Shown: one piece after another, positions 33,179 through 40,823 of the stretch
Position numbering within the stretch: position 1 is the first letter of the stretch
Layout: every line of letters begins with the position of its first letter
Source: Rhodothermales bacterium
Lineage (GTDB): Bacteria; Bacteroidota; Rhodothermia; Rhodothermales; DASSAV01
NCBI GenBank assembly: GCA_041690215.1
Contig: JAWLHQ010000003.1
Span: 193,792-257,791, forward strand
Reading direction: 5' to 3'
DNA: 64,000 nucleotides
Position numbers and translations under genes: made by a program
The notes under the pieces: generated by a model
The model's database searches: none
Told to the model about the DNA's origin: nothing
Seen by the model: only the letters and a program-made list of their open reading frames with translations

Positions 33179-33925
33179 ATGCCCACCCTCCACCTGCTCG
33201 GAACCGGAGCCGCCGTCAGTGATCCGCACCGTACGACGACGATGCTGGCCCTGGCACACGAAGCATCCACGATCGTGGTGGACTGCGGCGGTGATGTGAT
33301 CCAGCGGCTACAGGCGACTGGCATCGACCCGGATACCATCACCGGCCTGATTGTCACGCATGAACACCCGGACCACGTCAGTGGCTTTCCGCTTTTCATG
33401 GAGAAGATCTGGCTGGGCGGGCGGCGCAGGCCCATCCCCGTGTACGGGATCCACGCAGCAATCGACCAGGCACGGCGCTGCTTCGAAACGTTCAATACCA
33501 AGGGCTGGGCGGAGATGCCCGAAATCGAATGGAATGAAGTCCCGCTCGACGAGGACGTAACCGTACTGGAGGATGCCGTCTGGCGCGTGACGGCTACGCC
33601 GGGCGATCACGGTGTACCGGTCATCGCCCTTCGCTTCGAACACCGGGAAACGGGACGCTCCGTTACGTATTCCTGCGACACCAAGCCGTCCGAAAACGTT
33701 GCCCGGCTGGCACGCGGTACGGATATCCTCGTACATGAGGCTACCGGAGAGGGACCGTGGCACTCTTCCCCCGAAGAGGCCGCCCTCATTGCGGCACAGG
33801 CCGGCCCCCGGCAGCTTCTCCTTGTCCACCTCCCGCCCGGCCTCACGGATGCCGACCTCTCGCAAGCCCGGCGCACGTTTGCCGAGACCTACGTGGGCGA
33901 AGAACTCGGAACGTATCCCTTTTAG
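33179..33925 (+). CDS. MBL-fold metallohydrolase, RNase Z-like
   Basis: LGTG, VDCG, THEHPDH, YSCDT.P, HEAT, HS, VH. Confidence 0.85.
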   Translation: MPTLHLLGTGAAVSDPHRTTTMLALAHEASTIVVDCGGDVIQRLQATGIDPDTITGLIVTHEHPDHVSGFPLFMEKIWLGGRRRPIPVYGIHAAIDQARRCFETFNTKGWAEMPEIEWNEVPLDEDVTVLEDAVWRVTATPGDHGVPVIALRFEHRETGRSVTYSCDTKPSENVARLARGTDILVHEATGEGPWHSSPEEAALIAAQAGPRQLLLVHLPPGLTDADLSQARRTFAETYVGEELGTYPF

Positions 33926-33977
33926 CGGCGAACTCCTTGCCGCGTAATGACGAACAGATGGGGGCTCCTGCCCTGCT

Positions 33978-35957
33978 TCAGACAATCTGCTCGCGCGGCT
34001 GCCACTGATCCAGGAATTCGATGGCCTTCGGCGTCAAGAGGTACGAGCCGGTAGCATCCCCCTTCGACCGCAGGTACCCCTCTTGCAAGAGCCAGTCTAT
34101 CAAACCGTCAACCTGCGTTGCTGCAACCTCCTCCTGAAGCCTCCACGCGGTACGCGGCTGGCCGTTACGAGCCTGAACCAGAATCTGCCGGAGCAATGGC
34201 TCCGCCTCTGGAGTGATCTGCACACCGTGATTCCTGCCGAGACATATGTCGCACGCGCCGCAACCGTCGGCGCATGCCTCCCCGAAGTACGTAAGCAGGA
34301 AGTGACGCCGGCAGGAAACGGACCGCGCGTAACGAAGCATATCCTCCAATCTCGCCTCAGCACGCCACAACGACCGCTGAACGGCCGCTCCATCGACAGG
34401 AAGTTTCGTGGGACGGGCCGCGTTGAAAATCACCCGTAACTCATCTCCAGGAGCATACCAGTCTATCACGCCACGCTGCTTCAAAAAATCGAGGCCGCGC
34501 AAGAGCCTCACACGCGGCAAGCGGGTACTCCGCTCCAAGCGACGGAGATCGATCTCCCACCATTCGGAAAAGGCATCGGCATGGACCGTGCGCAACAGCG
34601 CGCTCACGAAGGCCGCCAGCGATCTGTTCTCCAGGTCGGCAGCCATTTCCCGGATGGTACGGGCAGGCTGCCGGAACCGGACCTGGGCATGATGCCCTCT
34701 CGATACCGGCACGGTCCACGTCTCTTGCCTGACCAGCAGGTCCACCGCCGTCCGGATCTTGCCGGCGCCGAACCCCGTGAGCCGGGCCACCGCCTCGTAG
34801 CTGGTGCTGACGGGTTTCTCCGGACGGGAGCCGATGGCGATGCGTCCCAGGTTGCATACGGCCTCATACACCTGCTGAACGGCCTTGACGTCCGGGTGGG
34901 ACTCCATGAGCAGTGCGCGCTGCGTAACCTCGTCGCGCGCATCATACAGTAGAACGGCGTAGGCCTTCTGCCCGTCTCGACCCGCACGGCCTGCTTCCTG
35001 GTAGTACATCTCCAGCGACCCCGGCATATCCACGTGAACGACGAAGCGAACATCCGGCTTGTCGATCCCCATGCCGAAGGCGTTCGTCGCCACGACGAGC
35101 CGTACATCCCCCCTCAGCCACGCATCCTGAACTTCGGAACGGCGCTCACTGCTTAACCCGGCGTGGTACGGCGAGGCGATCTCTCCTTCCTCATTCAGCC
35201 ATTCCGCCCATTCTTCGGCCCCTCGCCGCGTAGCGGCATACAGGATGCCGGAGCCAGAAACACCGCGAACCACATCCAGAACTTTCGCCCGTTTATTCTC
35301 GCCCCGGAAGATGGACCACACGATATTAGGGCGGTCGAACCCGTGGACGAACACGCGCGGCGCGCGCAGATCGAGGTGCTCTACGATGTCCCGCCGAACT
35401 TCGGGAGTTGCAGTGGCCGTCACTGCCATCGTGGGGGGATCGCCCAACAGGCGCCGAGCCGCCTTGATCTCCAGGTAGGCACGGCGGAAGTGGTGCCCCC
35501 ACTCGCTGATGCAGTGTGCTTCATCCACGACCAGCCGCTCTACCTTCAGCCGGCCGGCCCTCGCCAGAAACAACTCCGACCGGAGCCGTTCAGGAGCTAC
35601 GTACAGGAGTCGGTACCGCCCGAACTCGGCATCCGTCCAGCATTGATCGATGGCACGCGCAGACAGGGTGCCGTTGATGAAGGCCGCCGGAATACCCCGT
35701 GCATTCAACCCGGCTACCTGATCCTGCATGAGAGCGACGAGCGGTGAGATAACCAGGGTCAATCCCCCACTGCACACGGCAGGAAGCTGGTAGCAGAGTG
35801 ACTTGCCGCCCCCCGTCGGTAGAACGGCCAGAACATCCCGCCCTTCCAGTGCTGCTTCGATAATCTCCCACTGACCCGGCCGAAACGTCTCATGCTTCCA
35901 GTGTTTCCGGAGCACCGTCTCCGCCTGGTTCTTCGATGCGATGGGATCAGCGGACAT
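33978..35957 (-). CDS. RecQ-family ATP-dependent DNA helicase
   Basis: FRPGQ, PTGGGKSLCYQLP, DEAHCISEWGH.FR, ATNAFGMGIDK, YYQEAGRAGRDG, Zn site CRR...CG.CD.C. Confidence 0.93.
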   Translation of the reverse strand: MSADPIASKNQAETVLRKHWKHETFRPGQWEIIEAALEGRDVLAVLPTGGGKSLCYQLPAVCSGGLTLVISPLVALMQDQVAGLNARGIPAAFINGTLSARAIDQCWTDAEFGRYRLLYVAPERLRSELFLARAGRLKVERLVVDEAHCISEWGHHFRRAYLEIKAARRLLGDPPTMAVTATATPEVRRDIVEHLDLRAPRVFVHGFDRPNIVWSIFRGENKRAKVLDVVRGVSGSGILYAATRRGAEEWAEWLNEEGEIASPYHAGLSSERRSEVQDAWLRGDVRLVVATNAFGMGIDKPDVRFVVHVDMPGSLEMYYQEAGRAGRDGQKAYAVLLYDARDEVTQRALLMESHPDVKAVQQVYEAVCNLGRIAIGSRPEKPVSTSYEAVARLTGFGAGKIRTAVDLLVRQETWTVPVSRGHHAQVRFRQPARTIREMAADLENRSLAAFVSALLRTVHADAFSEWWEIDLRRLERSTRLPRVRLLRGLDFLKQRGVIDWYAPGDELRVIFNAARPTKLPVDGAAVQRSLWRAEARLEDMLRYARSVSCRRHFLLTYFGEACADGCGACDICLGRNHGVQITPEAEPLLRQILVQARNGQPRTAWRLQEEVAATQVDGLIDWLLQEGYLRSKGDATGSYLLTPKAIEFLDQWQPREQIV

Positions 35958-36027
35958 GTCGGCCCTTTCCGTCGTACAACAACCAGGGACTTACAAAGCA
36001 GAAAGATACGGCGCAGCCTCGGACAGA

Positions 36028-37344
36028 TCAGGAGGGGAAGAGAATCCGTTCGCGTAGACGTTCCGCATCGCCGCGAGTGACCGCCACAAAGATGTCATCC
36101 CGATTACGCCACACGAGCACGCGCTCCGCCCCCAGGTCGTGCAAATCGAAATGCTCGTCATCTTCGATTTGCCTCAGGATATCCGCAGCGAGGGTCACAC
36201 GCGTGCGATTGCGGTCCAGAAGAGCATAGCTATACGCAAAAAGAAGAAGCGGCTGCTCGGATACCTCGTCTTCGTAGTAAAAGACCGGCATCTTCACATC
36301 GCTCGTGACCTCGGTGATGCTTACACCACGCAGCGGCGCCTGGTCGATTTCGGGCAGCGTCAGCCGGAGGCCGAACGTGTCCAGCACGTATCGCTCCGCA
36401 TCTTCCGGACTGGACGTTTCCATATCGATCTCCACGTCGCCGGCATGTTGTGCCACCAGCGTAATCAGGTTCTGTTCTCTCGGAGAGCTCACGTGCCGCG
36501 ACACGAAATACGCTGCGAGCCCGGTCGCGAATACGAGCACAATGGCGAACAGCACACCCCGAAGCCGGGCTCCCTGGTTCCGTTGGGGCGGCAATGCAGG
36601 CCCTCGGTCAGGTGGACGGGCGTGAGCGGGCCGGGCGACCTCATGGCCATTAGAAACGCCGGCCGTTGCTGCTGCGGCGTCTACGGACATCCGCAGCGCG
36701 GAAGGCAGCGGCGCGAACTCGCTTCGGAGAACGTGCCTGAGCGATCCTAGCATCCAGTTGGACGACAGACTGGCCGACAGGAGTTGCCATTCGTGACCGG
36801 TCGCACCGGCATGGATCGCTTCGTAAACCCGCTGGTGTGCCTCGTCCAGCTTCCGGCATGCAGATTCCGGTTCGATCCCCAACACATCCGCCGCACGCTC
36901 ACAGGGCATCCCTTCGACGTCGCAGAGCAGAAGCAGCGCCCGCAGTTCGTCCGGGAGAGCCATGATGGCCACTGGAAGAATGCGTTCCAGGACGTGCTCG
37001 GCCACACGACGTCGATAGTCCGGAACGTTTTCTCCTGGTCCTGCTTCCGCATCCGGCGCCGCCTGCTCCTCTTCCACGGTATCCGAGGTGGATTCCATGG
37101 ATGCATCCCGGTACAAGGTCATGAGAATCTGGTACAATCGCTGCCGCTTCTGATCATCTGGTGTTCCGGGAGAAACCTCGCGTGCTGCGCGATGGCAGGT
37201 TTCCTCTACCAGTATGGTTGCGCGCGCTTCATCCAGTGTCAGTGCCTGGGCAAACCGGTACAAGCCATCCAGGTAGGGCTGAAACCATGCGCCTGGCTTA
37301 TTGGACGGACTCAGTGAGGTATGATCAGAAGATTCATGCATCAC
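36028..37344 (-). CDS. fusion: degenerate ECF sigma-like domain + TM helix + anti-sigma-type C-terminal domain
   Basis: PYLDGLYRFA..LT (region 2), LPDELR..LLL.DVEG......A.VLGI (region 4), TM GVLFAIVLVFATGLAAYFV, C-terminal LPEI...LRG...P.FYYED...VWR. Confidence 0.72.
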   Translation of the reverse strand: MMHESSDHTSLSPSNKPGAWFQPYLDGLYRFAQALTLDEARATILVEETCHRAAREVSPGTPDDQKRQRLYQILMTLYRDASMESTSDTVEEEQAAPDAEAGPGENVPDYRRRVAEHVLERILPVAIMALPDELRALLLLCDVEGMPCERAADVLGIEPESACRKLDEAHQRVYEAIHAGATGHEWQLLSASLSSNWMLGSLRHVLRSEFAPLPSALRMSVDAAAATAGVSNGHEVARPAHARPPDRGPALPPQRNQGARLRGVLFAIVLVFATGLAAYFVSRHVSSPREQNLITLVAQHAGDVEIDMETSSPEDAERYVLDTFGLRLTLPEIDQAPLRGVSITEVTSDVKMPVFYYEDEVSEQPLLLFAYSYALLDRNRTRVTLAADILRQIEDDEHFDLHDLGAERVLVWRNRDDIFVAVTRGDAERLRERILFPS

Positions 37345-37377
37345 GACAGGTACCCTGCTCGATGACCGGAGCGGACG

Positions 37378-38181
37378 TCACGTACGTTTATCGACAAACA
37401 CGATATTAACGGAAGCGCCCTTTCGAATGCTGAACAGACTGGAGGCGTTCCCGGTATTCACGGCGATCTCCAGGACATCTCCGCTGCCAAACAGCATCAG
37501 CGGCTCTCCAGCAGCTACGTCTGCGTACGTCGTAGATAACCCCGCAACAATCGCCGTTCCGACATAGCATTTCACTGCCCGGCCGGCCCTGCGATCCTCG
37601 AAAAGTTTGCGCGGTATGTTCGTAATACAGTTACCGAAGTGATCGACGTGAACCACCCAGCCCTGTATGCCCTGTTCGTCGGCGATGGGCAAGGCCCAGT
37701 GGAGCGGTTCGAGCGCCTGCCCCGGCGAGCCCACTTCGTCCAGCGAGTGCCCTCCGGCCAGATGCGCCGCGACGGGCGCGAAAATGTCCCGGCCATGGAA
37801 GGTGGTGCTGGGTGTTTCAGTACGCCAGAACTCAGGCTTATCCAGCACGACCAGCTTATCCGGTTCCCGGCTACCCACAAGCAGCGTGAACAGCCCGTTA
37901 TCCGGCCCCACGAAGATCTGGCCGCCATGAGAAAGCGCGACGGCCCGGCGGCTGCTCCCTACCCCGGGATCCACCACGGCCAGATGGACCGTACCCGGTG
38001 GAAAATGCGGAGCGGCATCCCTCAACACAAAAGCTGCCTCCATGACATCTTGCGGCGCAACCTCGTGTGTGACATCGACGAGTGTTGCGGAAGCATGAAT
38101 CGAAAGCATGACGCCCTTCATCGCCGCTACGTAGGCGTCGCGTGAACCAAAATCCGTCGTTAACGTGATGATGTGAGCCAC
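37378..38181 (-). CDS. DUF62 SAM hydrolase (SAM hydroxide adenosyltransferase; fluorinase/chlorinase superfamily)
   Basis: ITLTTDFG..D.YV..MKG, VVDPGVG..RR, GPDNG, STTFHGRDIFAP, D.FGN..TN. Confidence 0.92.
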   Translation of the reverse strand: MAHIITLTTDFGSRDAYVAAMKGVMLSIHASATLVDVTHEVAPQDVMEAAFVLRDAAPHFPPGTVHLAVVDPGVGSSRRAVALSHGGQIFVGPDNGLFTLLVGSREPDKLVVLDKPEFWRTETPSTTFHGRDIFAPVAAHLAGGHSLDEVGSPGQALEPLHWALPIADEQGIQGWVVHVDHFGNCITNIPRKLFEDRRAGRAVKCYVGTAIVAGLSTTYADVAAGEPLMLFGSGDVLEIAVNTGNASSLFSIRKGASVNIVFVDKRT

Positions 38182-38377
38182 TGAACAGGGATTGACTGAT
38201 ATCTACAGAACTAACCGAGTGATGAGAATATAGCGGGGGACATGATACGCAACGGTTCCTGCCTCCGCATACGTTATCTTCAACGACGCGAGGTCTACGC
38301 TCGAACGGGCGGAACAGGACCCGGCAGCAGCGGTCTCAGGCAAAGGTACGGCGCGACGCAGAGATTCAGCCCTTCTG

Positions 38378-39037
38378 ATGAGCAAACAGGAAAATTCCAT
38401 AGCGGACGACGAGCCTTCTCCGGCGGGGTCTGCGCCGGAGCATAGCCCGCGGTATCAGGAGGCACTGGACAGGTTCATCCTGTTCTGGGGAGAAATGGCG
38501 TCCAGCTGGGGCATCAACCGTACCATGGCGCAAATTCACGCCCTGCTCTACGCCTCCGAGCATCCTCTGGATACGGATGAGATCATGCAGCGGCTTCAGA
38601 TCAGCCGCGGCAATGCAAACATGAACCTGCGTTCGCTCATCAACTGGAATCTCGTCCGCAAGATCCACCTCTCTGGCTCCCGCAAGGATTACTACACGGC
38701 TGAGAAGGACGTCTGGGAGATCACCTCGCAGATCGTGCGCGAACGTGAGAAGCGGGAGATTCGCCCGGTCATGCAGCAGTTGGAGGAGTGCCGTTCGATC
38801 CTCTCAGATACCGGCCACCCGCTGGACGCATCGGAAGAACAACTCAAAGAGCGCATCGAAAGCCTCATGCAACTCATGCAGGTATTCGAAGGAGTCTCCA
38901 AGACGTTCCTCCCACTCATCCAGAAACGGAACGCAGCCATGATCCGCCAGCTCATTGGCTTTGCCTCCACCCTGCAAAATCACACCGAAGAGATGGATGA
39001 GAACGTGTGGCAGGAAACGCATAAAGGCGAGAGATGA
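38378..39037 (+). CDS. GbsR/MarR-family transcriptional regulator
   Basis: FILFWGEMASSWGINRTMAQIHALL...DEIM..LQISRGN....LR.L..W. Confidence 0.88.
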   Translation: MSKQENSIADDEPSPAGSAPEHSPRYQEALDRFILFWGEMASSWGINRTMAQIHALLYASEHPLDTDEIMQRLQISRGNANMNLRSLINWNLVRKIHLSGSRKDYYTAEKDVWEITSQIVREREKREIRPVMQQLEECRSILSDTGHPLDASEEQLKERIESLMQLMQVFEGVSKTFLPLIQKRNAAMIRQLIGFASTLQNHTEEMDENVWQETHKGER

Positions 39038-39459
39038 GCGGGCATTACGTTCCAAGAATGGAAGCAGGACGGTTCACCATGTCAACTACGAAGCTCGGAG
39101 CCACAGGCGAGGATATTGCAGCACAATACTTGGAAGGGCTCGGATACTATGTTCTGGAGCGCAACTATCGCTTTGAAAAAGCAGAGGTAGACCTCGTCTG
39201 TTTCGAGCCGGCGGAAGTGTATGAACAGGGAGGAGAACTGGTTTTCGTGGAGGTCAAAACCCGTCGAGGAGTCGGGTTCGGCTTACCCGAAGAGGCCGTC
39301 ACCCCGGAAAAACAGCGTAATGTCATCAAAGCGGCCAAAGCGTTCCTCTACGAGCGTCACCTGGAAGGCTCCCCGTGTCGCTTCGATGTGATCAGTATCC
39401 TGCTCAAAAACAATCAGCCCAAAATCGAGCACTTCAAGAACGCATTCTGGAGCTTCTGA
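39034..39459 (+). CDS. YraN (UPF0102) family nuclease-like protein
   Basis: G..GE..A..YL...GY..LERNYR, EVDLV, FVEVKTR, CRFDVI; ATGA overlap with the upstream stop (alternative start 39079). Confidence 0.92.
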   Translation: MSGHYVPRMEAGRFTMSTTKLGATGEDIAAQYLEGLGYYVLERNYRFEKAEVDLVCFEPAEVYEQGGELVFVEVKTRRGVGFGLPEEAVTPEKQRNVIKAAKAFLYERHLEGSPCRFDVISILLKNNQPKIEHFKNAFWSF

Positions 39460-39476: not shown

Positions 39477-40574
39477 CTACTCGGGACGGTATTCTTTCGG
39501 AAGCTGATCGGCAACGCGCTCGAACGCAAAATAACCGTAGACGGTCACGCCATACGGATCAACGACCTCGCCGGCTTGATCGACGGCCGTGGGGCCGTCA
39601 GTCAACTCGATCCAGGAGGTCTGCACGCGGTCCGCTCGTCTACGTGCCGCTATCCAGTTCGGAAACGACTTATCCTCCGGCTCATTCAGGTACACGATCT
39701 CCACGACACCGTTGAAATCCAGTTCTACCTCCGGCGCATCCCGGTCTCCATCCAGGAGGTACTTGGCCGGCATCGGATATTTCTCCGTGCTCCAGTGATC
39801 GAAGCCAATCGCATGACGCCCATAGGTTCGGAAACCGGCCTCGTGTGCAGAATCTGCCAGTACCGAAAGCATGAAGTGCCGGAACGAACCATAGAAGGCA
39901 CGCCTACGGTTTTCTTTCCAGCGCATAGCCTCTTCCGCATTTGCCGGCTCCAGCGGTTCGAATAACGGCTCTCCATCGTAACGGACCAGAGTTCCTCGTG
40001 CTTCGAACTCTTTCAGGAAGAAACGAACGCGGTACCCTAGCGCGCGATTTGTGATGATGAGCGGCGCGCTGGCACGCGCAATGAGCCGCCACCTGGGCGA
40101 TTCGAAATCCAGCACATACGGGTTCTCGATTTCCGTAAAGGCTGCTGCGGGCGATTCACCGATGAAGAGTCGCTCGAACTTTTCGAGCCGCTTCCGCCAA
40201 CGCCGGTTCTCCCGGTCCGACACGATGACCTCGGGGATCTCGACCAGGGTTGGCTTGAGCCGGAAAGAAAACGTAAGTTCATCCCCGCGCCGGATCAGGA
40301 GTTCTTTCCGCACCGGCTCGTAGCCCAGCATCGACACGTACAACCGGTGAGCACCTTCGGGCACGTTCGAAAGTGTGAACCGCCCTTCCGCGTTTGCCAC
40401 CGTGCCCATCATGGAGCCAGCGATGAAAACAGTTGCCCCTTCCAGCGGCATGCCGCTCACACTGTCGGCTACCACGCCGGAAAGCGTAACAGACGCTCCC
40501 CCCTGGGCCAGGACCCCCGGCACACCGACCTGGAACCAGACGGCAAATAGCAATAGGAGGACACGGGCACGCAC
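39477..40574 (-). CDS. exported protein with carboxypeptidase-like regulatory (CarboxypepD_reg-like) domain
   Basis: Signal peptide, SG.V.D...G.PL.GATV, G.F.L..VP.G...L.VS.LGY; N.ALGY, YGS.RHF; start uncertain. Confidence 0.75.
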   Translation of the reverse strand: MRARVLLLLFAVWFQVGVPGVLAQGGASVTLSGVVADSVSGMPLEGATVFIAGSMMGTVANAEGRFTLSNVPEGAHRLYVSMLGYEPVRKELLIRRGDELTFSFRLKPTLVEIPEVIVSDRENRRWRKRLEKFERLFIGESPAAAFTEIENPYVLDFESPRWRLIARASAPLIITNRALGYRVRFFLKEFEARGTLVRYDGEPLFEPLEPANAEEAMRWKENRRRAFYGSFRHFMLSVLADSAHEAGFRTYGRHAIGFDHWSTEKYPMPAKYLLDGDRDAPEVELDFNGVVEIVYLNEPEDKSFPNWIAARRRADRVQTSWIELTDGPTAVDQAGEVVDPYGVTVYGYFAFERVADQLPKEYRPE

Positions 40575-40823
40575 GGCGAGAAGCACGTAGGCGGGTGAGA
40601 AGGAATCGGCAAGACACGCGAGCGGCACTCCCTCAGGATGCACGAATGAGCCCGGTGAAAGATCCATCCCGTACGCCTCATCCTGATTAATCCAGGTGAC
40701 AACAATGCTCCAGGCTCGTATTTTCGGCCCGTGTTCGGGCTGACGTATCGAGAATGTTCCGACTGTATTGAACTCTACCACACTGACGCCTAGTGCGTTG
40801 GCGCCAAACCACCGCGAATCCTC

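Follow-up and report, generated by a model that had tools for sequence, protein, structure and literature searches.

A probable pseudo-sigma factor fused to a former anti-sigma sensor in a membrane protein of the Rhodothermales

The window analyzed here is a 64,000-nucleotide stretch of DNA from a Rhodothermales bacterium (assembly GCA_041690215.1, contig JAWLHQ010000003.1, positions 193,792 to 257,791). On its minus strand, at 36028..37344, lies an uninterrupted open reading frame (ORF) with a GTG start that encodes a membrane protein of 438 amino acids. The ORF is situated 33 bp downstream of a gene for an S-adenosylmethionine (SAM) hydroxide adenosyltransferase (SAM_HAT, DUF62; 37378..38181; PF01887 E 1.7e-58 and PF20257 E 1e-25, the SAM_HAT_N and SAM_HAT_C families) and 70 bp upstream of a RecQ gene (33978..35957; ORF list and Pfam scan). 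All three genes are co-oriented on the minus strand, and the ORF list and the Pfam scan bear out this arrangement as the initial annotation, made from the DNA alone, had given it. The 438-residue protein contains all the features of a sigma/anti-sigma hybrid, namely a sigma domain, an anti-sigma segment, a membrane helix, and an extracytoplasmic domain. From the comparisons below, we consider it fairly probable that it is such a hybrid whose extracytoplasmic function (ECF) sigma factor has been retired from transcription, with its folded cytoplasmic module retained.

We modeled the full protein with AlphaFold2 from a 19-sequence alignment (mean predicted local distance difference test score, pLDDT, 78.5). 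Read from the N terminus, with all coordinates on the minus strand, the model begins with a degenerate sigma2-like domain (residues 17–84, 37093..37296) built of helices 17–35, 39–56, and 63–84 (pLDDT ≈84–92). An acidic linker predicted to be disordered (residues 85–106, 37027..37092; pLDDT <50, column information 0.58 bits) leads to a likewise degenerate sigma4-like helix-turn-helix domain (residues 107–180, 36805..37026; pLDDT ≈87–96). Three further predicted helices (183–192, 197–209, and 215–230; pLDDT 82–85) make up what we read as the remnant of an anti-sigma domain (residues 183–230, 36655..36798); they carry no zinc ligands and end in a conserved PLPPxLR motif, and P214 is invariant in the 19-member alignment. 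Beyond a disordered juxtamembrane linker rich in proline and arginine (residues 231–256, 36577..36654; pLDDT 40–46, column information 0.64 bits) comes a single transmembrane helix (residues 257–284, 36493..36576; pLDDT 73–77). Residues 263–281 lie inside this helix, reach a Kyte–Doolittle peak of 2.39, and are the only strong hydrophobic segment of the protein, in agreement with the one membrane helix proposed earlier. The remainder, residues 285–438 (36031..36492), is predicted to form a periplasmic α/β sensor domain (pLDDT ≈75–95 in the full model).

Foldseek searches with the model place the N-terminal half among proteins with the sigma2 plus sigma4 fold, with matches to SigH, SigE, SigW, and SigL, and the sigma fold on which the initial annotation depended is thus present in the AlphaFold2 prediction. 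The modeled arrangement of the two domains fits the sigma chains of the SigW–RsiW, RpoE–NepR, CnrH–CnrY, and PhyR–NepR complexes, with template modeling (TM) scores of 0.61–0.67, and superposes poorly on polymerase-bound sigma factors (TM 0.30–0.38; root mean square deviation 22–28 Å). The predicted conformation of the sigma-like half is a closed state, in which the pseudo-sigma domain is probably clasped by the remnant anti-sigma helices of the same chain.

Modeled alone, the periplasmic domain reaches a pLDDT of 92.4. No Pfam family was found for it in the query or in the 19 members scanned. Its best fold matches are to the C-terminal domain of MucB/RseB (Z 7.1 and 6.9) and to TM1622 (PDB 1vr8; Z 6.5, Foldseek E 7.5e-5), over 93–104 aligned residues and at 7–16% identity for the three; these Z scores are middling, since values below 8 may mean a common arrangement only. 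Neither has a sequence relationship to the domain, and a shared fold shows no shared function. In the ESM Atlas, residues 285–438 match unnamed clusters, a cluster with the automatic name "anti-sigma factor (fragment)" (0.91), and DUF3379 (0.88); we take these as leads only. The domain had been likened to the extracytoplasmic part of RsiW/PrtR-type anti-sigma factors. It does prove to be the periplasmic domain of true zinc-binding anti-sigma (ZAS) factors, as described below, but a likeness to RsiW or PrtR was found in none of the Pfam, NCBIfam, PDB sequence, and fold searches. At the extreme C terminus (window 36031–36045), the sequence LRxRIxFPS is conserved in most full-length members and absent from the unfused anti-sigma factors; one might speculate that a tail-specific or PDZ protease recognizes this tail.

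The relationship of the N-terminal half to sigma factors is faint in family models and clear in profiles. In Pfam, the query stays below the cut-off for both Sigma70_r4_2 (22.7 versus 25.7 bits) and PhyR_sigma2 (20.3 versus 27 bits). Sigma70_r2 gives no match in the query and matches 2 of the 19 members at E ≤0.1. For TIGR02937, the query scores 20.7 against a cut-off of 42.9, which 18 places elsewhere in the same genome exceed. A profile of the 19 members, in turn, matches the Mycobacterium tuberculosis sigma factors SigH (E 1.1e-14) and SigE (E 6.5e-14), and hhalign aligns the family with 16 of this genome's own ECF sigma factors at Prob 98 and E 2.5e-13. The scan with hidden Markov models that the initial annotation had proposed therefore gives a divided answer: the Sigma70 models fall short or do not match, whereas homology and fold are clear by profiles, hhalign, and the model. 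Judged from the profile alignments, the homology of the N-terminal half to ECF sigma factors is beyond doubt.

Conserved residues of regions 2.2, 2.3/2.4, and 4.2 of sigma factors have established roles in core binding and in contact with the −10 and −35 elements. Aligned with M. tuberculosis SigE by HMMER, the query reads ATILVEET for AEDLTQET, RL for WL, and ESACRKLDE for GTVRSRIHR; the alterations first reported for this ORF relative to the consensus (DAEDLVQE to RATILVEE, WL to RL, and GTVKSRLxR to ESACRKLDE) are thus visible against a real sigma factor. We then compared 147 members of the family (those of 380–480 amino acids among 166 proteins) with 16 true ECF sigma factors, of which 13 come from this genome and three are partners of unfused anti-sigma factors from outside the order (loci L033, L034, and L038, described below). 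Seven sigma-family proteins of this genome that belong to another group or are long or atypical were left out of the reference.

The degeneracy noted in the query extends to the whole family. In region 2.2, an aspartate found in 69% of the ECF sigma factors gives way in the family to arginine (27%) or alanine (14%), a glutamine (75%) to glutamate (39%) or arginine (16%), and a glutamate (81%) to alanine (31%) or arginine (17%). Four positions of region 2.3/2.4, one of them an asparagine in 69% of the reference, fall into a four-residue deletion in 95–97% of the family, and an arginine present in every ECF sigma factor is retained in 24%. Region 4.2 is similarly altered: a threonine (88%) is replaced by glutamate (20%) or aspartate (15%) and kept in 16%, a valine (75%) becomes alanine in 53%, and a lysine or arginine (75%) is now cysteine in 22% and arginine in 18%. 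In the query, the recognition helix carries a net charge of 0, and the family average is −0.29 (standard deviation 1.49), against +3.25 (standard deviation 1.44) in the ECF sigma factors; a charge of +3 or more occurs in 2 of the 147 members versus 10 of the 16 sigma factors. Core hydrophobic positions are kept (A42 in 95%, L45 in 91%, L70 in 82%, P124 in 88%, R135 in 85%, and L138 in 87%). In this alignment, the residues for core binding and for −10 and −35 contact are lost throughout the family.

To trace where the protein came from, the periplasmic domain alone was searched in 301 genomes of the phylum. It occurs in 31 of them: this genome, 15 others of the order, and the rest outside the order. 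Within the class, these outside genomes belong to three families (2 of 2, 4 of 4, and 7 of 49 genomes carry the domain), and a fourth family, from elsewhere in the phylum, contributes 2 of 7. In two loci of one outside family (L033 and L034) and one of another (L038), the domain is part of a protein of 280–306 amino acids that has a single membrane helix and, at its N terminus, a zf-HC2 domain (36–47 bits). The gene for this protein immediately follows a canonical ECF sigma gene and overlaps it. The three partner sigma factors match Sigma70_r2 at 67–70 bits, Sigma70_r4_2 at 62–65 bits, and, as best NCBIfam model, TIGR02947 (SigH_actino) at 190–193 bits. These pairs have a sigma factor, anti-sigma helices, and a periplasmic domain orthologous to those of the fused protein; unlike it, they are two genes, keep intact motifs and the zinc site, and do not stand beside SAM_HAT.

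The link between the two arrangements is close. A profile of the family's sigma-like part scores the three partner sigma factors at 82.6–85.1 bits, against at most 45.8 bits for 20 sigma-family proteins taken from the best matches of this genome, and the stretches LPHLDxLY and LCD(L/V)EG are common to the family and the partners. In hhalign, family residues 176–438 align end to end and collinearly with the ZAS anti-sigma factors (Prob 99.6, E 9.7e-25, 253 columns). The remnant helices alone align with anti-sigma domains at P 8e-4, compared with 0.37 for a reversed control, and this collinear alignment upholds the earlier impression that the segment resembles the end of an anti-sigma domain. 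The HxxxCxxC zinc motif of the ZAS relatives aligns to a gap in the family, and no zf-HC2 match was found in Pfam for the query or the 19 aligned members. A canonical ortholog of the ancestral sigma factor was not found in 41 related genomes of the same genus, family, and order, where the best candidate reaches 90.6 bits and at most 39% identity, as against 58% between the two outside lineages. Taken together, the profile scores, the shared stretches, the collinear alignment, and the lack of a canonical ortholog in these relatives indicate that the protein is the fused descendant of a cognate pair of genes for a SigH/SigR-like ECF sigma factor and a ZAS anti-sigma factor. Two separate intact genes in relatives had been named as a sign of recent fusion or of an assembly artifact; such pairs do exist, but outside the order only, where they reveal how the fusion arose and do not point to an artifact.

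Two further families of the class (L035–L037 and L040) encode orphan anti-sigma-like proteins of 275–298 amino acids with the same periplasmic domain and no cysteines. No ECF sigma gene is found near them within the 6.5-kb stretches fetched, and one of these proteins matches RseA_N weakly (22.9 bits).

Within the order, the fusion is widespread. The protein database yields 19 relatives of 403–438 amino acids, the closest of which (P0002) is 67% identical to the query and the others ≈40%; two homologs carry the source name Rhodocaloribacter sp. An exhaustive profile search gives 214 cluster representatives (50% identity) at E ≤1e-30, and among the 150 matches listed, 15 are shorter than 380 amino acids, nearly all others measure 380–480, and most have the fused arrangement. 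In the related genomes, 36 of the 41 show a match; one of these (G040) matches weakly and over the sigma region only, leaving 35 of 41 that carry the family. Both halves are matched in 23 of the 35 carriers (20 in one piece, one in two pieces in one frame, one in two frames, and one split over contig ends), five match only from about residue 100 onward, and seven match in the C-terminal part only. No family match was found in G001, a genome of the same genus that is 93% complete in 580 contigs. That orthologs keep the fusion, a check proposed at the outset, is evident from the 23 carriers and from most of the 150 representatives, and on these comparisons the fusion is old and stable, neither an artifact nor a recent event. 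In the one-contig genome G018 (L013; C1:2612500-2618000), the sigma-like part and the C-terminal part lie in two overlapping frames, which may be either a frameshift in the linker region, hence a pseudogene, or a sequencing error.

The position of the gene is conserved as well. In 27 of the 28 genomes of the order in which the locus was compared, a SAM_HAT gene immediately precedes it on its own strand, the sole exception being a genome that is 62% complete (G024), and the SAM_HAT gene and the family gene overlap by a few bases in several loci. Outside the order, none of seven loci has a SAM_HAT gene next to the gene for the periplasmic domain within the stretches fetched. This association is one of conserved gene order, and we make no claim that the two proteins bind each other.

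With SAM_HAT as a fixed point, shortening of the protein in place can be followed. Between the SAM_HAT match and the first residue of the periplasmic domain, full forms have ≈730–950 nt, two remnant forms (L018, 364 amino acids, and L039, 316 amino acids) 549–635 nt, and short forms (197–269 amino acids, together with one locus whose start was not set) 158–417 nt. In the short forms, the cytoplasmic tail is rich in proline and acidic residues, and little is kept beyond a PxPP motif. By these distances, the sigma-like part was cut down or removed in place in some lineages. The periplasmic domain of the short forms, too, sits on long branches (0.83–1.93, against 0.15–0.85 in full forms) in a tree of 26 rows, in which 14 of 23 inner branches are open, so that independent losses of the sigma-like part cannot be counted from it. 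One further locus (L020; G025:C1:1766500-1771000) has a single in-frame TAA inside the match, and its called ORF is a 197-amino acid short form that starts just before the membrane helix; it is possibly a recently truncated copy.

In the fused family, the balance of constraint is also reversed. Among the canonical pairs, identity is 58–80% between sigma factors and 21–67% between periplasmic domains, whereas fused members P0003–P0019 share with the query 18–38% identity in the sigma2-like domain, 22–45% in the sigma4-like domain, and 32–57% in the periplasmic domain. Column information, computed from an alignment made with the fast mode of MAFFT, is 2.03 bits in the periplasmic domain, 1.61–1.67 in the sigma-like domains, 1.49 in helices 183–230, and ≈0.6 in the linkers. 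In these alignments, the periplasmic domain is now the best-conserved part of the protein. The sigma-like columns stand well above the linkers, yet the order of conservation is reversed, which suggests that the sigma-like part is still selected as a folded domain and not as a sigma factor.

Around the three genes, the DNA from 33800 to 38600 contains no promoter-like sites (1.1 expected), although the promoter type of the host may differ from the model used, and two terminator-like sites (2.9 expected), none of them on the minus strand between SAM_HAT, the 438-residue ORF, and RecQ. Contigs of a metatranscriptome RNA-Seq run (X19) match 36487–37224 and 37472–37922 at ≥99% identity, evidence that by its nature, being contigs alone, cannot show a transcript; one contig (X17, 37051–37403) spans the start of the ORF with fewer than 31 letters on its far side, too little to demonstrate co-transcription with SAM_HAT. 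A divergent MarR-like regulator (38378–39037; MarR_2 26 bits, just under the cut-off) and a UPF0102/YraN-like gene (39034–39459) form a conserved block with SAM_HAT (37378–39459), and the MarR-like ORF adjoins SAM_HAT again in many related loci (L001–L020). At the position that RecQ occupies here, many loci have a convergent gene downstream for a protein of ≈450 amino acids that starts M(K/R)AYR.SVNLKLGLI. Farther off, a 434-amino acid ORF on the minus strand (39477–40781) has a hydrophobic N terminus followed by a CarboxypepD_reg-like domain (71 bits), and the remainder has no family match. DNA nearly identical to 35900–38300 (97–100% of sampled words) is present in compost, fertilizer, and soil metagenome runs of several studies, and the host organism is probably a compost dweller.

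Single-chain membrane hybrids of sigma and anti-sigma factors are already in print, and the architecture is therefore not as unfamiliar as the initial annotation supposed. In Pseudomonas putida, the cell-surface signaling protein IutY (ECF243) joins, in one polypeptide, an ECF sigma domain that lies N-terminally in the cytosol to a periplasmic anti-sigma domain by way of one membrane span (PMC5411451, PMC8999054), an arrangement that the present protein shares. As those sources describe it, however, IutY is an active sigma factor of FecI/FecR-like type, processed and released by Prc and RseP, with a TonB-dependent receptor as its partner (PMC5411451), whereas here the sigma domain is SigH/SigR-like and degenerate and the periplasmic domain is unrelated. 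The groups ECF48, ECF52, and ECF53 of Actinobacteria (for example SCO4117) are described as ECF sigma factors fused C-terminally to a zinc-finger anti-sigma extension, with one or two membrane helices and an extracytoplasmic domain (PMC8999054), and the present family, too, goes back to a sigma factor plus a ZAS anti-sigma factor. In contrast to the present family, in which HxxxCxxC is deleted and the contact residues are lost, these groups keep the zinc finger and their sigma factor is treated there as functional; phylum and sensor domain differ as well. The reclassification of ECF sigma factors speaks of 19 groups with C-terminal extensions (PMC7826278), and its main text has no occurrence of "Rhodotherm", though its supplementary group tables may list the family. 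With that same reservation about the tables, we found no description of a degenerate, order-wide hybrid in the literature. The architecture is not new, and the order-wide degenerate version of it is a new variant.

PhyR, the anti-anti-sigma factor of Alphaproteobacteria, provides a different comparison. It too has a degenerate sigma-like domain whose fold is kept, its structures are among the fold matches of the query, and its family (NF006623) is the top NCBIfam match of the query (E 3.3e-10), though far below the 240-bit cut-off. The protein studied here differs in being membrane-anchored, in lacking a receiver domain in Pfam, in NCBIfam, and in the model, and in that the analysis turned up no NepR partner. 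That the protein is specially akin to PhyR does not hold up: the family profile matches SigH at E 1e-14 and the PhyR sigma-like domain at 1.2e-5, and canonical sigma factors also match PhyR_sigma2. Because true ECF sigma factors are closer in sequence than PhyR, the degeneracy arose independently of it.

The explanation that we favor, and hold to be fairly probable as stated at the outset, can be put as a sequence of steps. The ancestral module was a SigH/SigR-like ECF sigma factor and a single-pass ZAS anti-sigma factor with this periplasmic domain, encoded by two genes, which were then fused in one reading frame into one membrane protein throughout the order. After fusion, the sigma half kept its fold and lost the surface residues for the RNA polymerase core and the −10 and −35 elements, while the first helix and the zinc site disappeared from the anti-sigma domain. 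The result would be a membrane-spanning sensor that ends, on the cytoplasmic side, in a closed module of pseudo-sigma domain and anti-sigma remnant, one that would act, if at all, through protein–protein contacts and not on DNA. With these losses, the protein has most likely ceased to be a promoter-recognizing sigma factor. The comparisons above show the origin by fusion, the degeneracy of the family, the reversed constraint, the in-place losses, and the constant place behind SAM_HAT; the absence of sigma activity, the clasp of the remnant helices on the pseudo-sigma domain, and any signaling output are inferences from them.

Several observations weigh against this explanation. That the remnant helices touch the sigma-like domain of their own chain is predicted by a single AlphaFold2 model, and the homology of those helices to anti-sigma domains is weak when judged by itself (hhalign Prob 24.6, P 8e-4). 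A protein may lack consensus residues and still be active; some ECF groups are atypical, and some sigma4 positions are still sigma-like, namely LP, R135 (85% of members), and the AR..L motif. The sigma-like fold is under purifying selection in at least 147 clusters. An active fused sigma factor released by proteolysis has a precedent in IutY, as reported for it in PMC5411451, and no protein partner was found for a binding role.

Of the other explanations, the one that survives best, unlikely though we judge it, is that the protein is an active one-component ECF sigma factor. A periplasmic signal would trigger regulated intramembrane proteolysis, as described for IutY and proposed for ECF52/SCO4117, and the released N-terminal domain would bind core polymerase and recognize an unusual promoter. 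The architecture is that of the known hybrids as these sources present them (PMC8999054, PMC5411451), the sigma2 plus sigma4 fold is predicted with high model confidence, the domain descends from a true sigma factor and is under purifying selection (1.6–1.7 bits versus 0.6 in the linkers), and some members are annotated publicly as "RNA polymerase sigma factor". This reading, the first of two put forward by the initial annotation, is nevertheless disfavored: core, −10, and −35 contacts are lost family-wide and the recognition helix is neutral to acidic, Sigma70_r2 does not match and TIGR02937 stays below its cut-off, the domain has changed more quickly than the sensor domain, opposite to what canonical pairs show, and several lineages have cut or deleted the domain in place with the rest of the protein kept.

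The second of those readings, a membrane-anchored sigma mimic or partner switch, we rate as somewhat less probable still, and it would be a specific form of the explanation that we favor. Here the pseudo-sigma domain and the remnant helices would compete with a free sigma or anti-sigma factor from another locus, and a periplasmic signal would set the activity of another ECF sigma factor; by analogy, such a device might resemble PhyR–NepR with a sensor domain in place of the receiver domain, a likeness we propose with the same reserve. A degenerate but folded sigma domain is what PhyR has, 15 of the 19 members match the PhyR family that tops the query's NCBIfam list, the predicted conformation is closed, and no canonical, unfused ortholog of the ancestral sigma factor was found in the related genomes. 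On the other side, the PhyR matches reflect general sigma homology, true sigma factors score better, no partner has been found, this genome has no second protein with the periplasmic domain (one match), and lineages without the sigma-like domain exist. A self-contained transmembrane version of the switch, in which the pseudo-sigma domain would be a decoy that holds the remnant helices until a periplasmic signal, read by the conserved sensor domain, frees either the decoy or the helices to capture a free ECF sigma factor or a soluble anti-sigma factor, seems to us just as doubtful.

Least likely of all, in our estimate, is that the cytoplasmic half is a decaying, functionless relic and that the protein works through its membrane anchor and periplasmic domain, for instance in envelope biology and possibly with a co-transcribed SAM hydrolase: the periplasmic domain is indeed best conserved, and short forms and the remnant intermediates L018 and L039 persist at the same locus, but, were it neutral, a 230-residue domain would not have kept its fold and its conservation in 147 clusters (50% identity), and the long periplasmic branches of the short forms suggest that the whole protein is relaxed there, not the N-terminal half alone.

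ECF sigma factors are among the most widespread bacterial signaling devices, and the standard example of a sigma domain that became a mimic and binds proteins has so far been PhyR. If the pseudo-sigma explanation is right, a whole bacterial order keeps a folded and functionally stripped sigma domain welded to a former anti-sigma sensor. All stages, from separate genes through fusion and degeneration to remnants and loss, are represented in living lineages, a natural series on what becomes of the sigma fold after its sigma role. There is a warning for annotation as well: family members are recorded as "RNA polymerase sigma factor", "sigma24 family protein", or "hypothetical protein", and the first of these labels is probably wrong. 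Should the domain prove to bind a partner, sigma mimicry would have arisen a second time. Should it form a partner switch, the family would have a second, independently evolved sigma-mimicry system beside PhyR–NepR, wired directly to the envelope, and the constant pairing with the SAM hydrolase gene might tie that switch to methyl-donor or adenosine metabolism.

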